A DNA stretch of 64,000 bases from contig CAVYGA010000002.1 in the NCBI GenBank assembly GCA_963767955.1, positions 271,622-335,621 on the forward strand, read 5' to 3'. Positions within the stretch are counted from its first letter, which is position 1. Each line of letters begins with the position of its first letter. This DNA comes from an uncultured Actinomycetota bacterium (GTDB taxonomy: Bacteria > Actinomycetota > Actinomycetes > Propionibacteriales > Nocardioidaceae). Made by a program: the position numbers and the translations under genes. Shown here in pieces: positions 46,959 to 61,127 of this stretch. The notes beneath the pieces were generated by a model that saw only the letters and a program-made list of their open reading frames with translations, made no database searches and had not been told where the DNA came from.

Positions 46959-48020
46959 TCAGCGGGGGCGGAGGGCGCGGAGCAGGACCACGACGACGAT
47001 GCCGAGGACCAGGAACCCGGCCAGCCAGGGGACGGGGCTGCGCTGGGGCTCGCTCGGGTCCGGGAGCCCGACCCCGGGAGCGTCGCGGTCGGCGTCGGAG
47101 CCCGCCGACGGCCCGTCGGAGACCGAGCCGGACGCGCCGTCGGACGGACCCCCCGAGGGCGACGCGGAGGTGGACGGGCTGCCCGACGGCGGGACGGACG
47201 GCGACCCCGCCGGCGCGGCGACCGCGTCGGCGAGCTCCGGCGGCAGGGTGATCCGCAGCACCGCCGTCCGCGCGCCCTCCGAGCTGGCATAGATGGTGCC
47301 GTCGGACGCCACCGCGATGCCCTCGCCCTGCCGCTGCTGGGGAAGGTCGAACCCGCCCACGAGCTCCAGCGACGGGAAGGCCACCACGAACGCCCGGTCG
47401 TAGTTGCGCAGCAGCAGGTGCCGGCCGTCGGGGAAGAACGCGCCGTCGGTGATGAACCCGGGGGCATCACCGAGCCGTTCCAGCCGGTTCGGCGCGCCCT
47501 TCCGCAGCGCGGACGGGGCGGCGTACACCGCCCCACCGAGCAGGACCTTGGTGACCACGAACAGCCGACCGGTGCGCGGGTGTGCGAGCAGCGCCTCGGC
47601 GTCGAAGCGACCGGAGGGGTAGGTCAGGCGGTAGGCCTCCCCCGTCACCGTCCGGTTGCCGCGCGCCACCGGCACCCGGGTCACGGTGATCACGTCGCGG
47701 GCCGTCGAGTTGTCGCCGATGTCGCCGACCCACACCTTGCCGGGGCCGCCCGGGGCCAGCGCCTCGATGTCCGTCGGCTGGGCCGCCCACCTGGTCACCC
47801 CGACCGTCTGGCCCGAGGCCGGGTCGACGACGAAGACCCGCGCGGAGTCGCCCGAGTCGTTGACGGTGGTGACGAGCCCGTCGCCCGCAACCAGCCCGCT
47901 GGACTCCACGATCGCGAGGTCGGCGAAGCGGAACACCTCGTCCCGTTCGGCGGAGGCGGGCGCGAGGGCGGCACCGACCAGGAACGGTACGGCGATCAGG
48001 ACCGCGAACGCCTCACGCAA
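46959..48020 (-). CDS. Secreted, C-terminally anchored propeller-like hypothetical protein
   Basis: Signal peptide, 'ESSGL', 'NDSGD', 'DIEAL', 'VGDIGDN', 'DAEAL', Pro/Ser linker and C-terminal TM. Confidence 0.65.
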   Translation of the reverse strand: MREAFAVLIAVPFLVGAALAPASAERDEVFRFADLAIVESSGLVAGDGLVTTVNDSGDSARVFVVDPASGQTVGVTRWAAQPTDIEALAPGGPGKVWVGDIGDNSTARDVITVTRVPVARGNRTVTGEAYRLTYPSGRFDAEALLAHPRTGRLFVVTKVLLGGAVYAAPSALRKGAPNRLERLGDAPGFITDGAFFPDGRHLLLRNYDRAFVVAFPSLELVGGFDLPQQRQGEGIAVASDGTIYASSEGARTAVLRITLPPELADAVAAPAGSPSVPPSGSPSTSASPSGGPSDGASGSVSDGPSAGSDADRDAPGVGLPDPSEPQRSPVPWLAGFLVLGIVVVVLLRALRPR

Positions 48021-49236
48021 GGCGGTCCGCCACGAGCTCGGCGAGCCTGGGCCGCACCGACCACGCCTCCACGAGGCCGTCGTAGTCCTTGCGGACCGTG
48101 CCGCCCCTCACCGTCCCGCCGGTGCGCACCGCCCGCAGCAGGGTGTTGCGGGGCGTGTGCTGACTCTCCACGAACTCGACCACGTCGACGCGATAGCCCA
48201 GCACCCGCAGCAGCGCCGCCCGCAACGCGTCGGTGAGCGTGTCCGCGAACCGCTCGCGCAGGATGCCGTGCCGGGTGAGCAGGGCGTACGGCGCCGGGGT
48301 GGGGTGGCGGCGCAGCTGCGCGGCGATGTCGTGGTGGCAGCACGGGGCGGCCAGGACCAGCGGCGACTCCCACTCGACCGCCCGGGCCAGCGCCTCGTCG
48401 GTCGCGGTGTCGCACGCGTGCAGCGCGAGCACCACCTCGGGCGGCCTCTCCAGCGATGCGGCACCGATGGTGCCGACCACGAAGTCGGCCGTGTCCGCGA
48501 CCCCGAGCGAGGCGGCGACGGCGCCGTTGTGGTCGCGGGACTGCTCCTTGACGTCCACGCCGGTGACGGTGACCGGCAGTCCGCGCACGTGGGTGAGGAA
48601 GCGGTGGGCGGCGAAGGTGAGATAGGCGTTCCCGCAGCCCAGGTCGACGACCCGCAGCGGGTCCGCGGCGGTCGGGGTCCGCAACGCGCCGGCCTCGACC
48701 GCGTCGGTCACCGAGCCGTCGAGCAGCCGGAGGAACTCCTCGACCTGACGGTACTTCGCCTGCCTGCTGGGCTTGATCCGTCCCTGCGCGTCGGAGATGC
48801 CGAGCGCCACCAGCACCGGGTCGTCCTCGGGCAGCAGCCGGGCCTTGGACTTGTCATGCCCGCGCTCGACCTCGACCTCCGTGTCCCGGGGGCTGGAGTG
48901 CACCATCGCCTCGAGCTTCTTGGTGACCCGCACCTGGTGCTGCTCGGTCGTGGTCTCCACGTGCCAGTTCGCGAACGGCTGGTCGAGGAGGTCGTCGACC
49001 GCGTCACGGGCCGCGTCACCGACGGCATGGTTCGCCGTGTGCGCCTGGGTGTCGTCGTACGCCGTGACCTGGAGGTGACGCCCGGCCTTGAGGTCGACGT
49101 AGCGCAGCTCGACCCGCCTCCACCGTGCCTCCTGGCCCCGCCGGCGGCCGGACGCGACCGCGCGCACCAGCACCTGGTCGTCGAGCAGGTGGGTGCGCAT
49201 CCGGGAGAGGGCACGGAGCAGGGGTTCGGCGGCCAC
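48013..49236 (-). CDS. SAM-dependent methyltransferase (Methyltransf_32-like)
   Basis: 'KYRQVEEF', 'VVDLGCGNAYLTF', 'ALHACDTATD', 'APCCH'. Confidence 0.85.
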   Translation of the reverse strand: MAAEPLLRALSRMRTHLLDDQVLVRAVASGRRRGQEARWRRVELRYVDLKAGRHLQVTAYDDTQAHTANHAVGDAARDAVDDLLDQPFANWHVETTTEQHQVRVTKKLEAMVHSSPRDTEVEVERGHDKSKARLLPEDDPVLVALGISDAQGRIKPSRQAKYRQVEEFLRLLDGSVTDAVEAGALRTPTAADPLRVVDLGCGNAYLTFAAHRFLTHVRGLPVTVTGVDVKEQSRDHNGAVAASLGVADTADFVVGTIGAASLERPPEVVLALHACDTATDEALARAVEWESPLVLAAPCCHHDIAAQLRRHPTPAPYALLTRHGILRERFADTLTDALRAALLRVLGYRVDVVEFVESQHTPRNTLLRAVRTGGTVRGGTVRKDYDGLVEAWSVRPRLAELVADRLA

Positions 49237-49381: not shown

Positions 49382-50104
49382 TCAGACGAACGGCGTGGGG
49401 TCGCCCTCGACCCGCACGAACTCCGCCATCACCTGACCGCGGGGGTGTCCCCAGTCGCCCACGTAGTTGAACTCCCACGGCAGGTGCTCGGCGGCCCAGG
49501 CGAGGTCCTTGCGGTAGTACCAGTAGAAGTTGCGCTCGGTGTAGAGCGTGCGCCCGCGCTCGCTGATCCCGTCGACCGGGAACTCCGGCTCCTGCTCGAA
49601 GAAGGTGACGTAGAACCTGCCGCCGACCGCCATCACCTTGCCGACGCGGGCCAGGGCCAGCCGCAGGTGGTTCAGCGACAGGTGGCTGAAGATCGACTGG
49701 GCGATCGCCATGTCGAACCGGACGCCGAAGTCGGCGTCGAACCGGTCGGTGATCCGCAGGTTGCCCTCGGGGAGCCGCGCCCGGGTGGCCTCGTCGAGCT
49801 CGTTCTCGTAGCCGGCGGTCAGCAGCGACAGGTTCACGTCGATGCCGTAGTAGTTGCCCGGGTCCAGGTAGGCGGCCAGGAGCCGGCCGGCGCGCAGCGA
49901 GCCGCAGCCGACGTCGAGGAAGCGGTGCTCCGGCCGCAGGCCGCGCCCCTGGAGGAACTCGAGCTGCCTGGCGCCCATCTCCTCCCAGCGGCCGCCGACG
50001 AACGCGCGGTGCTTGAGCTTCTTGACGGCCTTCGCGCCCACGTTGCGGGTCGCGTAGTCGATGTCCGTCTCACGCGGAACCTCGAGGCGGCTCTCGATCG
50101 GCAT
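49382..50104 (-). CDS. Class I SAM-dependent methyltransferase
   Basis: 'HRAFVGGRWEEMG...FLDVGCGSLRAG...YYGIDVN', 'AQSIFSHL', 'HPRGQVM'. Confidence 0.8.
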   Translation of the reverse strand: MPIESRLEVPRETDIDYATRNVGAKAVKKLKHRAFVGGRWEEMGARQLEFLQGRGLRPEHRFLDVGCGSLRAGRLLAAYLDPGNYYGIDVNLSLLTAGYENELDEATRARLPEGNLRITDRFDADFGVRFDMAIAQSIFSHLSLNHLRLALARVGKVMAVGGRFYVTFFEQEPEFPVDGISERGRTLYTERNFYWYYRKDLAWAAEHLPWEFNYVGDWGHPRGQVMAEFVRVEGDPTPFV

Positions 50105-50144: not shown

Positions 50145-53015
50145 CTAGCAACTTCCGCCGGAGCCGCCGGGTGAGGGACGTCGGGCGTCCCGGATGCCCG
50201 GCCGGCCGTCTCGAGCGACGTCGGGGGAACCCAGCCTCGAGGCCAGCAGCTCGGCCAGATGCATGGCCGGCACGTCCGCCAGGTCGTCGAGCTGGACCCG
50301 GCACGACAGCCCGTCCGCCAGCACCACCGCGCCGGGTGCCGCGGCCCGGACCGCCGGCAGCAAGGCGTGCTCCGCGATCGCGACCGAGACCTCGTAGTGC
50401 CCCTGCTCCATCCCGAAGTTGCCGGCCAGACCGCAGCACCCACCCACGCGGGTCACCGACGCCCCTGCCCGGGCCAGCAGCTCGGCGTCCGCCTCCCAGC
50501 CGAGCACCGATGCGTGGTGACAGTGTGGCTGCGCGACCACGACCGTGCCGCGGAGGTCCGGCGGCCTCCACTCGGGCAGGTCGGAGAGCAGCTCGGCCAG
50601 CGTCCGCATGCCGGCGGCCACCTCGGCGGCGCGCGGGTCCTCGACGAGCTCGACGGCGTCGCTGCGCAGCGTCGCCAGGCACGACGGCTCGAGCCCCACC
50701 ACGGGCACGCCGGAGGCGACGTACGGGTGCAGGGTGGCGACCGTGCGCGCCATGATCCGGCGGGCCGCGTCGAGCTGGCCGGTGGTGACCCAGGTCAACG
50801 CGCAGCACGCGGGCTCGTCGATCACCCGCACCCGCAGCCCGGCCGCCTCGAGCAGCCGGATCGCCGCGTGCCCGGACCCCGGCGACAGGTGGTCGGTGAA
50901 GGTGTCGGCCCAGAGCCACACGTCCGGGGCGTCCTTCCCTCCGGTCGCCCGGGTGCCGCGGCGCAGGGTGGTCGACGCGAACCGCGGCAGGTCGCGCCGG
51001 CGGTCGACGCCGGCCACCGCCTTGGCCAGCCGGGCGGTCGGACCGAAGGCGAGCGTGGCGTTGAGCAGTGGCGCCAGCGGTGCGGCCAGTCGTGCCCACC
51101 GCGGCAGCCGGCCCAGCGTGTAGTGCGAACGCGGCCGGCGCCTGCCCGCGAAAGCCTGGTGCAGCGCCTCCGACTTGTACGTCGCCATGTCGACGCCGGT
51201 GGGGCAGTCGCGGGCGCAGCCCTTGCAGGACAGGCAGAGGTCCAGTGCCTCGGCGACCGCGGGATCATCGAGGCCGTCGACCAGCGACCCGTCCAGCGCC
51301 TCCTGGAGGACCCGGGCCCGGCCGCGCGTGGAGTCCTTCTCGTTGCGGGTGGCGATGTAGGACGGGCACATCACGCCGCCGGCGCCGGTGTTGTCGGCCA
51401 GGCACTTGCCGACCCCGGTGCAGCGATGCACGGCCGCGCCGAGCGAGCCCCCGTCGTGGACCAGCCGCAGCGCGGTGCGGACCGGGGCGACCGGCCGCGC
51501 GGGACGCAGGTCGGCGTCCAGCGGTGCCGGGTCGACCAGCACCCCCGGGTTCAGCAGCCCGTCGGGGTCGCAGATCGCCTTCACCGCGCCGAACAGCCGC
51601 AGGGAGTCCGCGTCGTACATCAGCGGCAGCAGCTCCGAGCGGGCCCGGCCGTCGCCGTGCTCGCCGGACAGCGAACCGCCGTGGGTGCGCAGCGTCAGCG
51701 CCGCCTCGGTGAGGAACGCCCGGAACGCCGCGCCCCCGTCGTCGAAGCCGAAGTCGATCCGCACGTGTACGCAGCCGTCGCCGAAGTGACCGTAGGGCAC
51801 GCCGTCGAGACCGTGCTCGCGCAGCAGTCCGTCGAAGTCACGCAGCCAGGCACCCAGCCGGGCCGGTGGCACCGCGGCGTCCTCCCAGCCGGAGTACGCC
51901 GGCGTGCTCAGGCTGCGGGCGGCCAGTCCGGCGCCGTCCTCGCGGATCCGCCAGAGCGCGGCGGCCTCGGCCAGGTCGGTGACCACCCTGCTGTCCACGG
52001 CACCCGCGACCGCGACCAGGCCGCGGGCGAGCGCGGCCGCGTCCTCGGCCGTGTCGGCGCTCACCTCGACGAACAGCCAGCCCTCACCGCGCGGCAGCGG
52101 GGGCACGCCGCGGCCTGTCGCCCGGACCACGTCCACGATGCGGGAGTCGAGACCCTCGCAGGCCACGAGGCCCTGCGGCTGGGCCAGCAGGGCCGGCACC
52201 GCATCCGCGGCCTCGGGCATCGAGGGGTAGCCGAGCACCACGAGGGCGGTCGCCGTCGGCTCCGGCACCAGCTCCACGGTCGCGTCGAGCACCAGCCCGA
52301 GGGTCCCCTCCGAGCCGACCAGGAACCGGTCGATCCGGCGACCGCGCTCGGGCAGCAGGTGCTCGAGGGAGTAGCCGCTCACCTGCCGGCCGAACGTCCC
52401 GAACGCCGTGCGCAGGTGGTCGAGGTGCCCGTCGGCCAGCGCGTTCAGCGCGGCGACCGGCCCGACCGGGCGGCCCTGCACCCGGGTCGAGATCGACGAG
52501 CCGTCGCCGAGCAGCACCCGCATCCCGGCGACGTTGTCGGCGGTCCGGCCGTAGCCGAGCGCCCGCGAGCCGCAGGCGTTGTTGCCGATCATCCCGCCGA
52601 TCGTGCAGCGGGTGTGCGTGGACGGGTCCGGGCCGAAGCGCAACCCGTGCGGTGCGACCGCGCGTTGCAGGGCCGCGTGCACGACGCCGGGCTGCACCGT
52701 GGCGGTGCGGGCCTCCGGGTCGACCGCGAGCACCCGGTTGAGGTGCTTGGAGGTGTCCACCACGATGCCGGGGCCGACCGCGTTGCCGGCGATCGAGGTG
52801 CCGGCGCCGCGCATCGTCACGGGCACCCCGGTCGCGCGGGCGACCGCGAGCACGGCGGCGATCTCGTCGGGGTGGCGGGGACGGACCACCGCCCGCGGGA
52901 CCACACGGTAGAGCGAGGCGTCCGAGGAGTACGTCGCCCGGTCGAGCGTCGACGCGGACGCGTCGGCGACCCCCTCCCGCCGCAGCGCGGCGACCAGGTC
53001 CGCTGCCGCGCTCAC
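50145..53015 (-). CDS. FAD-binding type 4 + Fe-S + CCG-domain oxidoreductase (YdiJ/GlcD-GlcF-like 2-hydroxyacid dehydrogenase)
   Basis: 'RGAGTSIAGNA', 'GPDPST...TIGGMIGNNACG', 'GSEGTLG', 'GHFGDGCVH', 'SGEHGDG', 'CLSCKGCARDCP', 'CCGLAG'. Confidence 0.88.
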   Translation of the reverse strand: MSAAADLVAALRREGVADASASTLDRATYSSDASLYRVVPRAVVRPRHPDEIAAVLAVARATGVPVTMRGAGTSIAGNAVGPGIVVDTSKHLNRVLAVDPEARTATVQPGVVHAALQRAVAPHGLRFGPDPSTHTRCTIGGMIGNNACGSRALGYGRTADNVAGMRVLLGDGSSISTRVQGRPVGPVAALNALADGHLDHLRTAFGTFGRQVSGYSLEHLLPERGRRIDRFLVGSEGTLGLVLDATVELVPEPTATALVVLGYPSMPEAADAVPALLAQPQGLVACEGLDSRIVDVVRATGRGVPPLPRGEGWLFVEVSADTAEDAAALARGLVAVAGAVDSRVVTDLAEAAALWRIREDGAGLAARSLSTPAYSGWEDAAVPPARLGAWLRDFDGLLREHGLDGVPYGHFGDGCVHVRIDFGFDDGGAAFRAFLTEAALTLRTHGGSLSGEHGDGRARSELLPLMYDADSLRLFGAVKAICDPDGLLNPGVLVDPAPLDADLRPARPVAPVRTALRLVHDGGSLGAAVHRCTGVGKCLADNTGAGGVMCPSYIATRNEKDSTRGRARVLQEALDGSLVDGLDDPAVAEALDLCLSCKGCARDCPTGVDMATYKSEALHQAFAGRRRPRSHYTLGRLPRWARLAAPLAPLLNATLAFGPTARLAKAVAGVDRRRDLPRFASTTLRRGTRATGGKDAPDVWLWADTFTDHLSPGSGHAAIRLLEAAGLRVRVIDEPACCALTWVTTGQLDAARRIMARTVATLHPYVASGVPVVGLEPSCLATLRSDAVELVEDPRAAEVAAGMRTLAELLSDLPEWRPPDLRGTVVVAQPHCHHASVLGWEADAELLARAGASVTRVGGCCGLAGNFGMEQGHYEVSVAIAEHALLPAVRAAAPGAVVLADGLSCRVQLDDLADVPAMHLAELLASRLGSPDVARDGRPGIRDARRPSPGGSGGSC

Positions 53016-54274
53016 CACAGCTCCATCGAGCCCCGGAACACCGCGGCCAGGTCGTCACCGGTGACCTCGCGCGGCGCGGTGGCCAGCAGTCGTTGCTGCT
53101 GGAGCGCGCCGGTGACCAGGTCGTCCACGTCGGCGTCGCCGTAGCCGACCTCGGCCAGGCCGTTGGGGATGCCGATGTCGCGCATCAGCGCGGCGAGCAC
53201 GGACGGGAGCGTGTCCGGGTCGTTGCCGGACGCGGACGGGTCGAGCAGCCGGGCGGCCCTGAGGTGCCGCTCCGGCGCTGCCTCGAAGGTGAACCGGAAA
53301 GCCTCCGGTGCCGTGAGCGAGACCGCCATGCCGTGCGGCACGATCGGGTCGTCCTGCGGGTAGCCCTCCGGCCGATAGTCACGCACCCGGCCGGCGATGG
53401 GATAGGCGTTCGCGTGGGGGACGTGCACGCCGGCGTTGCCGAAGCCCATCCCCGCGAAGGTGGCCGCGAGCGCCATCTGCTCCCGGGCCGCGGCGTCCCC
53501 GCCGTCGCGGACCGCCGCGCGGAACGAGCCGGCGAGCAGCGACAGCGCCTTCTCGGACCACATGTCGGCGATCGGGTTCGCTCCGCAGTAGGGCACCCGC
53601 TCGGACGCCTGCTTGGCCGGGAAACTGGCGTACCAGCGCGCGGTGTAGGACTCCAGCGCGTGGCAGAGGATGTCCATCCCGGAGGCGGCGGTGACCATCG
53701 CCGGCTGGCTCATCGTCAGCTCCGGGTCCACCACGGCCAGCGTCGGGCGCAGCCGCGGGTGGCTGATGCCGGTCTTCACGTGCTGCTCGAGCACGTCGAG
53801 GACGCAGATGGTGGTGCTCTCGCTGCCGGTGCCGGTGGTGGTCGGCACCGCGACCAGCGGACGCAGCGCCCGCTCGGGAGCCCGTCCCCCGCCCACCGGG
53901 GCGTTGACGTAGTCCATCAGCTCACCCTCGTTGGTGCCGAGCAGGTTGACGGCCTTGGCGGTGTCGATGGCGGACCCGCCGCCGACCGCGACGTAGGCGT
54001 CGAACGGGCCCTCCGCGCGGCCGAACGCGACCGCCTCCTCCAGCGACGCGTCGGTGGGCTCGACCCGGGCCCGGTCGAAGACCACCACCTCGATCCCGGC
54101 CGCGCGCACCTGGTCGGCGATCCGTGCCGGATGACCGGTCGCCGCCACGCCGGGGTCGGTGACCAGGAGCACCCGGCGGGCGTCGTACTGCCCGAGATCG
54201 TGGCCGATCTCGCCCGAGCTGCCCGGCCCGAACTTCAGGGCCGGCGCGCCGTAGGTGAAGACCGTCTCGTCCAT
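53012..54274 (-). CDS. Hydroxyacid-oxoacid transhydrogenase (HOT/ADHFE1-like)
   Basis: 'AVGGGSAIDTAKA', 'AVPTTTGTGSESTT', 'KTGISH', 'DILCHALESYTA', 'YCGANP', 'GFGNAGVHVPHANAYPIAG', 'VPHG'. Confidence 0.88.
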   Translation of the reverse strand: MDETVFTYGAPALKFGPGSSGEIGHDLGQYDARRVLLVTDPGVAATGHPARIADQVRAAGIEVVVFDRARVEPTDASLEEAVAFGRAEGPFDAYVAVGGGSAIDTAKAVNLLGTNEGELMDYVNAPVGGGRAPERALRPLVAVPTTTGTGSESTTICVLDVLEQHVKTGISHPRLRPTLAVVDPELTMSQPAMVTAASGMDILCHALESYTARWYASFPAKQASERVPYCGANPIADMWSEKALSLLAGSFRAAVRDGGDAAAREQMALAATFAGMGFGNAGVHVPHANAYPIAGRVRDYRPEGYPQDDPIVPHGMAVSLTAPEAFRFTFEAAPERHLRAARLLDPSASGNDPDTLPSVLAALMRDIGIPNGLAEVGYGDADVDDLVTGALQQQRLLATAPREVTGDDLAAVFRGSMELW

Positions 54275-54295
54275 GGCACCCAACGTAGCCGGGGC

Positions 54296-55168
54296 TCAGA
54301 GGGTGAGTGCGTGGCGGACCACGTCGAGGACGTCGAGCTCGCCGCTGTCCACGTCGGCGACCGGCACCCAGGCCACGGCGTCGGTGGTGCCGCCGACCTC
54401 CACCACGCGGGGCTCGGCGTCGGCCGGCACCGTGGCCGCGAAGACCAGGTGCACGCCGTGATAGTCCTCGTGACGCCCCGACGGTGCGGTGCCGGAGAGG
54501 TGCACGTCGTGGATGCCGAGCAGCTGCCCGATGTCGGCCTCGAGGCCGCACTCCTCGTGCACCTCCCGGGCCAGCGCGGCGACCGGCGGCTCGCCGTGGC
54601 CGATTCCGCCGCCGGGCAGGGTCCAGGCCCCCGGGCGGTGACCGCGGTCCGAGATCCGGGTGAGCAGGACACGTCCGTCGCGACGGGCCAGGGCATAGAC
54701 CGCCAGCCGCTGCATCTGGAACGGCTCGTGCCCGCGCAGCGCCTGGTGCACCAGGTCGGTGACCGGCACCCTCCCGGACCGCACGTCGGCCAGCGGGTGC
54801 CACGCCGCGGCGATCGTGGAGCCGTTCACCTCCACGACCCGGGGCGCGGGCGCGTCGACCGGCACCCACCCCTCGAAGACGATCCGGAGCGCGTGGTAGT
54901 CCGCCCCGCCGTCGCCGTGATGGGCCCGGGGGTTGTGCATCGAGTAGACCCGTGACTGTCGGGACACGGCCGCGTGCAGTCCGGTCTCCTCGTAGATCTC
55001 CCGCACCACCGCGCGGGCGGGGTCCTCACCGTGGTCCAGCCCGCCTCCGGGCAGCGCCCAGAGCTCGCCGCCGGCGATCCGGGGGGCGAGCCGCGAGAGC
55101 AGGATCTGATCGTCGCGCAGCACCACGGCGTACGCCGCGACGCGTTGTCGCTGCGGAAACCGACCCAT
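54296..55168 (-). CDS. Tandem two-domain NUDIX hydrolase
   Basis: Two Nudix boxes: '[23 protein letters not shown]' and '[23 protein letters not shown]'. Confidence 0.88.
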
Positions 55169-55265
55169 GGGCGCGAGCCTAGGCCCTGGCACCACGAATC
55201 CCGTCGCCCGCCGACGCGAACCGCGATCCGGTGGGTCGCCGGCAGGCGTTCGCTAGCGTGACGGC

Positions 55266-56288
55266 ATGGCGCGCGACCCCTGGCTGGACAACGTGAAGAT
55301 GGTGCTGGTGACCGTGGTCGTCGTCGGCCACTCGTTGACCATGGTGCCCGGTGAGGGCCGCAACGCCCAGATCTACGACTTCATCTACTACTGGCACATT
55401 CCCGCGTTCGTCCTGGTCACCGGCTACCTCTCCCGCGGCTTCACCTGGTCCCGCCGGCATCTCTGGGCGCTGTTCTGCACGATCGTGGTGCCCTACTTCC
55501 TCTTCGAGTTCGCGCTGCTCTTCTACCGCGAGCACCGCGGCGGTGAGGTCATCGGCGCCCCGATGTGGCTCAACCCGCACTGGCCGATGTGGTACCTCGC
55601 CGGGGTCTTCCTGTGGCGGATGGTGACGCCGCTGCTCAAGCGGCACTGGGCCGCGGTGCCGGTCACCATCGCGATCAGCCTGTGGTTCCCCATGCTCGGC
55701 GGCACCTGGACGACGTACCTCGACCTCAACCGCGTGGTGGGCTTCCTGCCGTTCTTCGCCCTCGGCCTGCACCTGACCCCGGCCCACCTCACGAAGCTCA
55801 AGTCCCGCACCGCCGCCCTCGTCGGCGCCGCGGTGCTGGTGGGCATCTACGTGCTGGCCGGGCACACCGACGACTGGATCGCCACCAAGTGGCTCTGGTT
55901 CGCCTTCTCCTACGACTACTTCGGTGCCTCCGACTCGGAGGGGGTCTGGAACCGGCTGCGGCTGATCGGCATCGCCACGGCCGGGTCGCTGGCGGTGCTG
56001 GCGGTGATCCCGCGCCGCCGCACCTGGTTCACCGACCTGGGCGCGGGCAGCCTGGTGGTCTACCTCTTCCACGGCTTCTTCATCAAGGAGGCGCAGTACC
56101 AGGGATACGCCGACTGGGCCGCCGCGCAGGGCACCTGGACGATCTGGCCGACGATCGCGGGAGCGGTGCTGCTCGCCGTGGTGCTCGCCTGGCCGCCGGT
56201 CTCGACGCGGCTCACCTGGGTGGTCGACCCGATCGGCTCGGTCAGCCGGCTCCGAGGACGCCGGTCCCGGGCCGGGGCGGGGCGCTAG
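55266..56288 (+). CDS. Acyltransferase-3 (OafA/YkrP-like) membrane O-acyltransferase
   Basis: 'RDPWLDNVK...VVVGH', 'IYYWHIPAFVLVTGY', 'WYLAGVFLWR', 'SLVVYLFHG'. Confidence 0.85.
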   Translation: MARDPWLDNVKMVLVTVVVVGHSLTMVPGEGRNAQIYDFIYYWHIPAFVLVTGYLSRGFTWSRRHLWALFCTIVVPYFLFEFALLFYREHRGGEVIGAPMWLNPHWPMWYLAGVFLWRMVTPLLKRHWAAVPVTIAISLWFPMLGGTWTTYLDLNRVVGFLPFFALGLHLTPAHLTKLKSRTAALVGAAVLVGIYVLAGHTDDWIATKWLWFAFSYDYFGASDSEGVWNRLRLIGIATAGSLAVLAVIPRRRTWFTDLGAGSLVVYLFHGFFIKEAQYQGYADWAAAQGTWTIWPTIAGAVLLAVVLAWPPVSTRLTWVVDPIGSVSRLRGRRSRAGAGR

Positions 56289-57063
56289 GGCCCCACGTCG
56301 GCCACACCGCGCTGCGCGGCACCACGTCGAGGGGGGTGGCCTCGTGGCGGTCGGGGGCGTGCCCACCGAGGTGGTGGGGGTACCACGGCGCCTGCTCGCC
56401 GGGGGCCGGCCGGTGCTCGGGCAGCCGCTGCACGCCCTCGAGCAGCGTGGTCAGATGCCGTCCCAGGGCCTGGGTCCACTCGGTCAGGTCGTCCCCCGGG
56501 GCGGCGTACCGCGGCTCACCGAAACGGACGTCCACCACCCGGCCGCGCCGCAGGCTCGGCCTCGGCTCCCTGCCGTCGACCGGCCGGCCCACGCTCCAGA
56601 TGCGCTGCCCACCCCAGACGACGACCGGGAGCACCGGGACCCCGGTCTCACGGGCCAGCGAGGCCACGCCAGGCATCAGGGCCCGGATCGTGTAGGAGTA
56701 GGAGATCCCGGCCTCCGGGAACGCCCCCACCGCCTGCCCGTCGCGCAGCAGGCTCCGCGCCCGCAGGTACGCCGCCGCGGGCGCCTGCCGGTCCACCGGG
56801 ATGTGCTGCATCCGGTCCATCGCCCAGGACACCGGGCGGTTGTGCCAGACGTCGTGGCGGCACATGAACCGCACGAAGCGGTCGCGCTCCACCGCGGCCC
56901 GCTCGACCAGCACGAAGTCGGGGTAGGACACGTGGTTGACGGCCAGCAGCACCGGCCCGGTGCTCGGCAGGTGCTGCGCACCCTCGACGCGGACGCGCAC
57001 GTCGAGTGCGCGGAGGGCGCCACGACCGAGGGCGTTGACCGCTCGATACACCCGGTCGCTCAT
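56242..57063 (-). CDS. Lysophospholipid (PlsC-like) acyltransferase
   Basis: 'LAVNHVSYPD' (HxxxxD), 'FPEAGIS'. Its 3' end overlaps the convergent acyltransferase. Confidence 0.88.
   Translation of the reverse strand: MSDRVYRAVNALGRGALRALDVRVRVEGAQHLPSTGPVLLAVNHVSYPDFVLVERAAVERDRFVRFMCRHDVWHNRPVSWAMDRMQHIPVDRQAPAAAYLRARSLLRDGQAVGAFPEAGISYSYTIRALMPGVASLARETGVPVLPVVVWGGQRIWSVGRPVDGREPRPSLRRGRVVDVRFGEPRYAAPGDDLTEWTQALGRHLTTLLEGVQRLPEHRPAPGEQAPWYPHHLGGHAPDRHEATPLDVVPRSAVWPTWGPSAPPRPGTGVLGAG

Positions 57064-57251: not shown

Positions 57252-61127
<3,876 letters not shown>

Follow-up and report, generated by a model that had tools for sequence, protein, structure and literature searches.

A hydroxyacid-oxoacid transhydrogenase-family gene coupled to a FAD/Fe-S dehydrogenase gene in the Nocardioidaceae: a putative 2-oxoglutarate/D-2-hydroxyglutarate cycle

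D-2-Hydroxyglutarate (D-2-HG) owes its fame to disease: it is an oncometabolite, and it serves as marker for a human inborn error of metabolism. To our knowledge, its normal production by hydroxyacid-oxoacid transhydrogenase (HOT) and its recycling by D-2-hydroxyglutarate dehydrogenase (D2HGDH) have been demonstrated in animals only. Could a bacterium keep both steps in one operon? The question is raised by a stretch of 64,000 nucleotides (the window) from an uncultured member of the Nocardioidaceae (contig CAVYGA010000002.1, positions 271,622 to 335,621), in which the gene for a HOT-family protein (P0002) is followed by that for a flavin adenine dinucleotide (FAD)/iron-sulfur (Fe-S) 2-hydroxyacid dehydrogenase (P0001), a fusion of GlcD-like and GlpC-like parts. 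It is argued here that the pair probably constitutes a coupled hydroxyacid oxidation cycle with 2-oxoglutarate and D-2-HG as its carrier. The elements concerned are the following.

53012-54274, minus strand: HOT-family iron-containing alcohol dehydrogenase (P0002), 420 aa, with Pfam domains Fe-ADH and ADH_Fe_C
53012-53015, minus strand: GTGA start/stop overlap of the HOT and FAD/Fe-S genes, read in the sequence
50145-53015, minus strand: GlcD-GlpC fusion FAD/Fe-S 2-hydroxyacid dehydrogenase (P0001), 956 aa, defined by Pfam domains and a putative D-2-HG dehydrogenase
52488-52898, minus strand: FAD_binding_4 domain of P0001, residues 41-177 (Pfam, E 2.8e-42)
51543-52259, minus strand: FAD-oxidase_C substrate/cap domain of P0001, residues 254-492 (Pfam, E 1.6e-45)
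51189-51431, minus strand: two 4Fe-4S motifs of P0001, residues 530-610 (Pfam Fer4_8 and Fer4_17)
50229-50921, minus strand: GlpC/GlcF-like region of P0001 with two CCG domains, residues ~700-930 (Pfam CCG)

Both open reading frames lie where the initial annotation had placed them and have a G+C content at third codon positions (GC3) of 0.95, which is of the coding type, in a window of about 73% G+C whose proteins share 80-97% identity with those of Nocardioides. The frame of P0002 extends over 53012-54283, with an in-frame TTG at 54283, and its start is likely to be the ATG at 54274, which gives 420 aa, the same as in its homologues; the frame of P0001 extends over 50145-53018, with a second in-frame GTG at 53018. 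At the junction (ctgtGGTGAgc), the TGA stop of the HOT gene (53014-53012) overlaps the GTG start of the dehydrogenase gene (53015-53013), as the initial annotation had read it, so that the two genes appear to be joined by translational coupling through this GTGA overlap. The CTGTGGTGA junction is also present in the copy of the pair carried by a Mycobacterium dioxanotrophicus plasmid.

The identity of the upstream enzyme, which the initial annotation had called HOT-like, is the first element of the answer. P0002, the sole iron-containing alcohol dehydrogenase (Fe-ADH) of the 3.88-Mb genome, matches Pfam Fe-ADH (E 6e-45) and ADH_Fe_C (E 4e-33), and its close homologues are named hydroxyacid-oxoacid transhydrogenase in the databases; a protein atlas returned automatic HOT names only, and an NCBIfam search of P0002 gave no equivalog at its cut-off. 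When animal ADHFE1 orthologues were picked, through a cluster look-up, from the representatives of an exhaustive search, P0002 proved to be 44% identical over its full length (349 bits) to that of the insect Chilo suppressalis, versus 187 bits with the top-scoring Fe-ADH in the PDB, which is a methanol dehydrogenase. Two insertions, of 19 residues between helices 5 and 6 and of 13 residues between helices 8 and 9, are reported to occur in every HOT protein and to be lacking from all other Fe-ADHs (PMC5125639). Both are present in P0002 (alignment A2), as they are in HOTs from insects, flatworms, protists, Bacteroidota, Deinococcus and Streptomyces, whereas FucO of E. coli has neither. P0002 also keeps the GGGS nucleotide motif and the metal ligands D204/H208, H290 and H317 in the same alignment. 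The inserts and the identity to the insect protein bear out the initial assignment, and P0002, on these features, genuinely belongs to the HOT/ADHFE1 subfamily (CDD cd08190).

P0001, the downstream enzyme, matches the NCBIfam GlpC model PRK11168 over residues 585-930 (E 2.8e-46), and its 4Fe-4S motifs (C-x5-C-x11-CP and CxxCxxCxxxCP) have cysteines that line up with those of E. coli YdiJ. Its active-site positions were checked by alignment to human D2HGDH (6lpn) and with a motif table. It keeps the equivalents of the catalytic and Zn-binding residues Arg386, His434, His441, Glu475 and His476, which are common to all 2-hydroxyacid enzymes; the Arg lies in LWRIRE, the two His in YGHFGDGCVH and the Glu-His in SGEHGDG. 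In human D2HGDH, the C5-carboxylate of the substrate is bound by Lys401 and Asn443, which are strictly conserved (PMC7801405). The proteins of E. coli and Pantoea with the YdiJ architecture are strict D-2-HG dehydrogenases (PMC9504171). P0001 most likely re-oxidises D-2-HG to 2-oxoglutarate. In a maximum-likelihood tree of the fusions, those of actinomycetes form several clades, with YdiJ as a long outgroup, and all the HOT-adjacent fusions fall into one of these clades (clade A, support 98/99), where they include its deepest branches. A separate idea, that an in-frame TGA seen in many fusion matches is recoded, was dropped because in the one case checked (G097/L014), the match overruns the terminal stop of the open reading frame, and the translated match region contains no internal stop.

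Taken together, these features suggest the following cycle. P0002 would oxidise an omega-hydroxyacid to the semialdehyde, most likely 4-hydroxybutyrate to succinic semialdehyde, and would hand the hydride, via a tightly bound nicotinamide cofactor, to 2-oxoglutarate, which would become D-2-HG. P0001 would then convert D-2-HG back to 2-oxoglutarate, and the electrons would leave by way of the two 4Fe-4S clusters and the CCG domains of P0001. Their acceptor is probably a quinone, as has been proposed (PMC12297413); the respiratory chain, named as recipient in the initial annotation, is a presumptive destination even in the case of YdiJ (PMC9504171). In sum, a hydroxyacid and an acceptor would yield a semialdehyde and the reduced acceptor, 2-oxoglutarate and D-2-HG would have the role of a catalytic carrier, and D-2-HG would not build up. 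The anatomy of the genes, the family of P0002, the domains of P0001 and the recurrence and context of the pair were observed directly, whereas we infer the transhydrogenase chemistry in a bacterium, the physiological hydroxyacid, the electron acceptor and the use of D-2-HG by P0001.

If the two proteins work together, their genes might be expected to recur as neighbours, and a co-occurrence analysis had already been proposed in the initial annotation. Such an analysis was made on 201 genomes sampled evenly from the class, a neighbour being defined as the next gene on the same strand within 1 kb. The fusion gene came next after HOT in 11 of the 23 HOT-bearing genomes (9/21 when the unpublished genomes G006 and G031 are left aside), and in one further case the pair is probably split by the end of a contig. 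Anywhere in the genome, the fusion was found in 20 of these 23 genomes versus 48% overall, figures that are inflated by kinship; the pairing of HOT and fusion exceeds chance. When named genomes were scanned, 80 HOT loci came to light, each with an identity to P0002 of 46% or more; among their sources are Actinomycetota, Chloroflexota, Planctomycetota, Deinococcota, Gemmatimonadota and Bacteroidota. At 21 of the 80, the fusion follows HOT (Nocardioides, Aeromicrobium, Marmoricola, Streptomyces sodiiphilus and several metagenome-assembled genomes).

In some cases nothing separates the two genes, and in others a Zn-ribbon (FmdB-like) or a DUF1648 gene lies between them. The former encodes a protein of 134-170 aa with an N-terminal Zn_ribbon_8 domain, directly after HOT (L022, 9257-9661; L026, 7561-8037; L099, 7282-7731; and about ten more loci); it sits between HOT and the FAD/Fe-S gene in several actinomycetes and is absent from the window. 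In some Nocardioidaceae, the intervening gene is the latter, which encodes a membrane protein of small size (L054, 7170-7679; L060; L100, 7257-7745). In a clade of HOTs that are about 46-50% identical, a 4HBT-fold thioesterase gene directly follows HOT on three unrelated contigs (L032, 9313-9768; L033, 9297-9740; L138, 6323-6781).

Another line of evidence comes from the genomes in which HOT has a different companion. HOT is divergently adjacent to the gene of a GlcD-only enzyme in an actinomycete metagenome-assembled genome (L088) and in Conexibacter arvalis (L091); the best PDB match of the L088 enzyme is human D2HGDH (256 bits), and both GlcD-only enzymes retain Lys401 and Asn443. In the class sample, the HOT genomes without the fusion carry a canonical D2HGDH in 3/3 cases (309-435 bits, signature kept). 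Of 11 HOT genomes examined that have the fusion, only one (G162) carries it as well. The window's own genome, which is among the 11, has none, and the further GlcD-like protein that it encodes is a glycolate-oxidase-type enzyme with a small/hydrophobic pocket. The distributions of the fusion and of canonical D2HGDH are therefore largely complementary in HOT genomes, and the fact that HOT is accompanied by either of two types of D-2-hydroxyacid dehydrogenase is the pattern expected if either type removes the product of HOT. As for another origin of this product, SerA of M. tuberculosis reportedly does not use 2-oxoglutarate, to judge from the title of a paper cited in PMC9504171; if this behaviour were general in actinomycetes, SerA would not be their source of D-2-HG.

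Which hydroxyacid might then be oxidised? On pYYL1.1 of Rhodococcus ruber YYL (L141, 11989-16409), a tetrahydrofuran (THF) degrader (PMC5702389), the HOT-fusion pair lies between IS1380 and Tn3 transposase genes and adjoins genes for a GntR regulator and an aldehyde dehydrogenase as well as the four-gene thm monooxygenase cluster. By its look, the pair has been mobilised as a unit of two genes and enlisted in the breakdown of THF. THF catabolism proceeds via gamma-butyrolactone or 4-hydroxybutyraldehyde to 4-hydroxybutyrate and then to succinate (PMC7464125). The plasmid of the dioxane degrader M. dioxanotrophicus PH-06 has the order NADP-dependent succinic semialdehyde dehydrogenase (SSADH), FAD oxidoreductase, major facilitator superfamily transporter, HOT and fusion, the last being 57% identical to P0001, with an AMP-binding enzyme and a glyoxylate carboligase pathway downstream of the fusion. 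Other HOT genes are found in a lactonase-HOT-SSADH cluster on pSTJ001 of Halobacterium hubeiense (L145, 5150-8648), in a HOT-AttM lactonase cluster on pDrdI of Deinococcus wulumuqiensis (L144, 5980-8085), in the order metallo-beta-lactamase-type hydrolase, HOT and Zn-ribbon in Streptomyces and its relatives, and before an aldehyde dehydrogenase gene in a more distant Streptomyces clade. In the window's own genome, an SSADH-like gene exists away from the operon. Such surroundings suggest that prokaryotic HOTs usually act on 4-hydroxybutyrate; 3-hydroxypropionate, the substrate in C. elegans, or a similar compound is possible. A broader proposal, which we advance tentatively and with less conviction than the cycle itself, is that the pair is a mobile two-gene module that serves as an acceptor-linked (probably quinone-linked) 4-hydroxybutyrate dehydrogenase, and so fills the hitherto unassigned oxidation step of actinomycete THF, 1,4-butanediol, gamma-butyrolactone and possibly dioxane catabolism, and that the clade-A fusions constitute a further, non-orthologous family of D-2-HG dehydrogenases beside the canonical and YdiJ types.

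Several observations weigh against the cycle, and a number of them concern P0001. It is colinear with YdiJ over about 1000 residues (BLASTP), with an identity of 27%, and it scores 365 bits against the NCBIfam YdiJ model NF049975, the equivalog cut-off of which is 1350. Tyr432 is kept, and P0001 has Arg at the position of Asn443 and Trp at that of Lys401, although the latter position is less certain owing to a nearby gap in the alignment. Its H-x-R motif is common to YdiJ and to every actinomycete fusion paralogue examined, and so marks the fusion family rather than discriminating between substrates. PP4737 shares the architecture of P0001 and oxidises D-lactate (PMC12297413), which makes D-2-HG the presumptive substrate of P0001 rather than one dictated by its architecture. 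In clade A, fusions from HOT-less genomes are interspersed among the HOT-adjacent ones. A substrate readout based on the pocket positions of D2HGDH, D-lactate and glycolate enzymes was attempted and abandoned, since the fusion-family pattern (Tyr, H-x-R, no Lys401) occurs in all the paralogues and in YdiJ; together with the tree, this pattern means that sequence alone cannot name the substrate. A claim of YdiJ orthology for the actinomycete fusions was likewise given up because YdiJ is a long-branch outgroup. P0001 thus has the YdiJ architecture, as the initial annotation had it, and is not a YdiJ orthologue.

The other points of this kind concern the distribution of the genes and what has been assayed. 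Fusions are far commoner than HOT (97 of the 201 sampled genomes versus 23), and close orthologues of P0001 occur in HOT-less genomes. In two Nocardioides (L017 in G120 and L021 in G182), the NUDIX gene, HOT and the downstream methyltransferase gene have been kept and the fusion has gone from the locus; other genes occupy its place, and a fusion 56-57% identical is found elsewhere in each genome. Three distant HOT representatives have unrelated neighbours. The window's operon contains no lactonase, SSADH or transporter gene. Finally, enzyme assays of HOT have been confined to mammalian proteins, and HPHD-1 of C. elegans is known from genetics and isotope tracing (PMC5125639, PMC10096224).

These points leave room for other explanations. 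One of them would retain the cycle and change the carrier: HOT would reduce pyruvate, glyoxylate or 2-oxoadipate, and P0001 would re-oxidise D-lactate, glycolate or D-2-hydroxyadipate. This would fit with the activity of PP4737, with the missing Lys401 and Asn443 and with the presence of HOT amid glyoxylate-assimilation genes on plasmids of M. dioxanotrophicus and R. pseudokoreensis. We consider it unlikely given that the characterised HOTs use 2-oxoglutarate (PMC5125639, PMC10096224), that HOT stands beside enzymes with the D2HGDH signature in other lineages and has partners with a complementary distribution, and that the window's genome has, in its separate GlcD-type enzyme, a pocket of the glycolate/D-lactate kind. 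Another explanation would do away with the cycle: P0002 would oxidise 4-hydroxybutyrate or an alcohol with NAD(P) in the ordinary way, P0001 would be an independent housekeeping 2-hydroxyacid dehydrogenase, and the two would have only a transcript in common. The intact GGGS motif and metal ligands, which are those of any Fe-ADH, and the many HOT-less genomes with fusion orthologues are compatible with this, as is the use of the NAD-dependent Fe-ADH AttL/BlcB by the gamma-butyrolactone operons of Agrobacterium. Against it are the HOT-only inserts in P0002 and the movement of both genes together, flanked by IS elements, on pYYL1.1; moreover, the link between HOT and D-2-hydroxyacid dehydrogenases of two families would have no rationale unless a D-2-hydroxyacid were formed. 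The Agrobacterium-/Rhizobium-type plasmid Fe-ADHs, which we take to include AttL/BlcB, are less than 36% identical to P0002 and are annotated as iron-containing alcohol dehydrogenases and not as HOT; on the same grounds of identity and annotation, which place AttL/BlcB in another subfamily, they were not accepted as evidence that HOT-like proteins of bacteria work simply as NAD-dependent enzymes. This explanation, too, has in our opinion a low probability.

Lower still is the probability of a third explanation, namely that the adjacency is inherited synteny in the Nocardioidaceae and their relatives and has no functional meaning. Most of the adjacent cases do belong to Nocardioides, Aeromicrobium and Marmoricola, in a conserved rpoC-NUDIX-HOT-fusion-methyltransferase neighbourhood, and the fusion has been lost from this neighbourhood in the two congeners mentioned above. 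However, the pair also occurs outside this neighbourhood, both in chromosomes of Streptomyces sodiiphilus and other families and, with quite different surroundings, on plasmids of Rhodococcus and Mycobacterium. The M. dioxanotrophicus plasmid has kept the start/stop overlap, and other lineages have evolved the different layout in which HOT is divergent from a canonical D2HGDH gene. The coupled cycle with D-2-HG as carrier is the explanation that we prefer. As an idea, it was present in the initial annotation, as a two-enzyme cycle running through D-2-HG; it has since gained the recurrence of the pair, the HOT genes beside canonical D2HGDH, the complementary distribution and the plasmid contexts, in addition to the HOT family membership and the YdiJ architecture, and it has lost the direct argument from P0001, which has neither Lys401 nor Asn443 and does not group with YdiJ by descent.

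The surroundings of the pair in the window are as follows.

57252-61127, minus strand: rpoC, in the gene run followed by GC3
56242-57063, minus strand: PlsC-type acyltransferase, in the gene run followed by GC3
55266-56288, plus strand: Acyl_transf_3 gene, which breaks up the minus-strand gene run
54296-55195, minus strand: double-NUDIX hydrolase, 299 aa (Pfam NUDIX, two stretches)
49382-50104, minus strand: class I methyltransferase (Pfam Methyltransf_12)
48013-49236, minus strand: S-adenosylmethionine-dependent methyltransferase (Methyltransf_32)

Between the end of the double-NUDIX gene and the HOT start lie 21 nt, and the NUDIX gene possibly belongs to the same transcription unit. The order NUDIX-HOT is kept across Nocardioides and partly in Aeromicrobium, with no evident functional link to the cycle. 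On the other side, the methyltransferase gene at 49382-50104, with an ATG at 50104 preceded by AAGGA, starts 40 nt downstream of the dehydrogenase stop and is possibly co-transcribed with it; the Methyltransf_32 gene (48013-49236) is syntenic in other Nocardioides. A scan of the locus for promoters and terminators revealed no promoter-like or terminator-like site.

What is already known, then, is the HOT/D2HGDH cycle of animals and the YdiJ-type enzymes; the novelty lies in the operon form found in a prokaryote, in the partner, which comes from a distinct clade of Fe-S fusions, and in the presence of the pair on solvent-degradation plasmids. An open-access literature search (HOT with actinobacteria, THF, dioxane and gene clusters) yielded no paper on a bacterial HOT/dehydrogenase module. 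If the proposed cycle is correct, a prokaryotic operon that hard-wires both steps would mean that the cycle is ancient, and the pair beside THF monooxygenase genes could be put forward for the 4-hydroxybutyrate dehydrogenase step of actinomycetes that degrade solvents. The fusions would also extend the Fe-S-linked D-2-HG dehydrogenases by a new clade, which might be of use in biosensing or in the removal of D-2-HG. A search of solved structures with P0002 gave no HOT-family structure among the matches, which is why an easily purified bacterial HOT would be useful for mechanistic work.

How does the pair compare with known systems? PP4493 of P. putida and YdiJ of E. coli are D-2-HG dehydrogenases of the GlcD+GlpC type (PMC9504171, PMC12297413), and P0001 shares with YdiJ an identical domain order from end to end, the aligned Fe-S cysteines and the H-x-R motif; it differs from YdiJ in its low identity, its score far below the model's cut-off and the outgroup position of YdiJ in the tree. 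Moreover, YdiJ recycles D-2-HG made by SerA, whereas the proposed source for P0001 is HOT. P0001 also has the GlcD+GlpC architecture of the Fe-S D-lactate dehydrogenases (PP4737/Dld-II type), a comparison made at the level of domains. In the serine synthesis of Pseudomonas and E. coli, the SerA-D2HGDH couple resembles the proposed cycle in that reduction of 2-oxoglutarate to D-2-HG and re-oxidation by a flavoenzyme pull an unfavourable dehydrogenation (PMC9504171, PMC12297413); unlike HOT, SerA belongs to the 2-hydroxyacid-dehydrogenase family, uses free NADH and is not encoded in an operon with the D2HGDH gene.

The attKLM/blcABC operons of Agrobacterium offer a parallel in the route from lactone through 4-hydroxybutyrate and succinic semialdehyde to succinate. 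Unlike the pair in the window, they contain no 2-hydroxyacid dehydrogenase gene, and the AttL-type enzymes are NAD-dependent Fe-ADHs of another subfamily than HOT. Clusters of the same shape exist in Halobacterium (lactonase-HOT-SSADH) and, as HOT-AttM, in Deinococcus, and in these a HOT-family enzyme takes the place of the NAD-dependent AttL.

A close functional parallel to the proposed cycle is found in animals, where ADHFE1/HPHD-1 reduces 2-oxoglutarate to D-2-HG and a FAD dehydrogenase, D2HGDH/DHGD-1, recycles it (PMC10096224, PMC5125639), a cycle experimentally established in C. elegans (PMC10096224). The hydroxyacid is 4-hydroxybutyrate in mammals and 3-hydroxypropionate in C. elegans (PMC5125639, PMC10096224). 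P0002 resembles the animal HOTs in both inserts and in its identity to the insect ADHFE1 orthologue, whereas animal D2HGDH, of about 480 aa and linked to the electron-transfer flavoprotein, differs from P0001, which is a FAD/Fe-S/CCG fusion of about twice this length without Lys401 and Asn443. Also unlike the animal system, the window has both genes in a single operon, where they appear to be translationally coupled.

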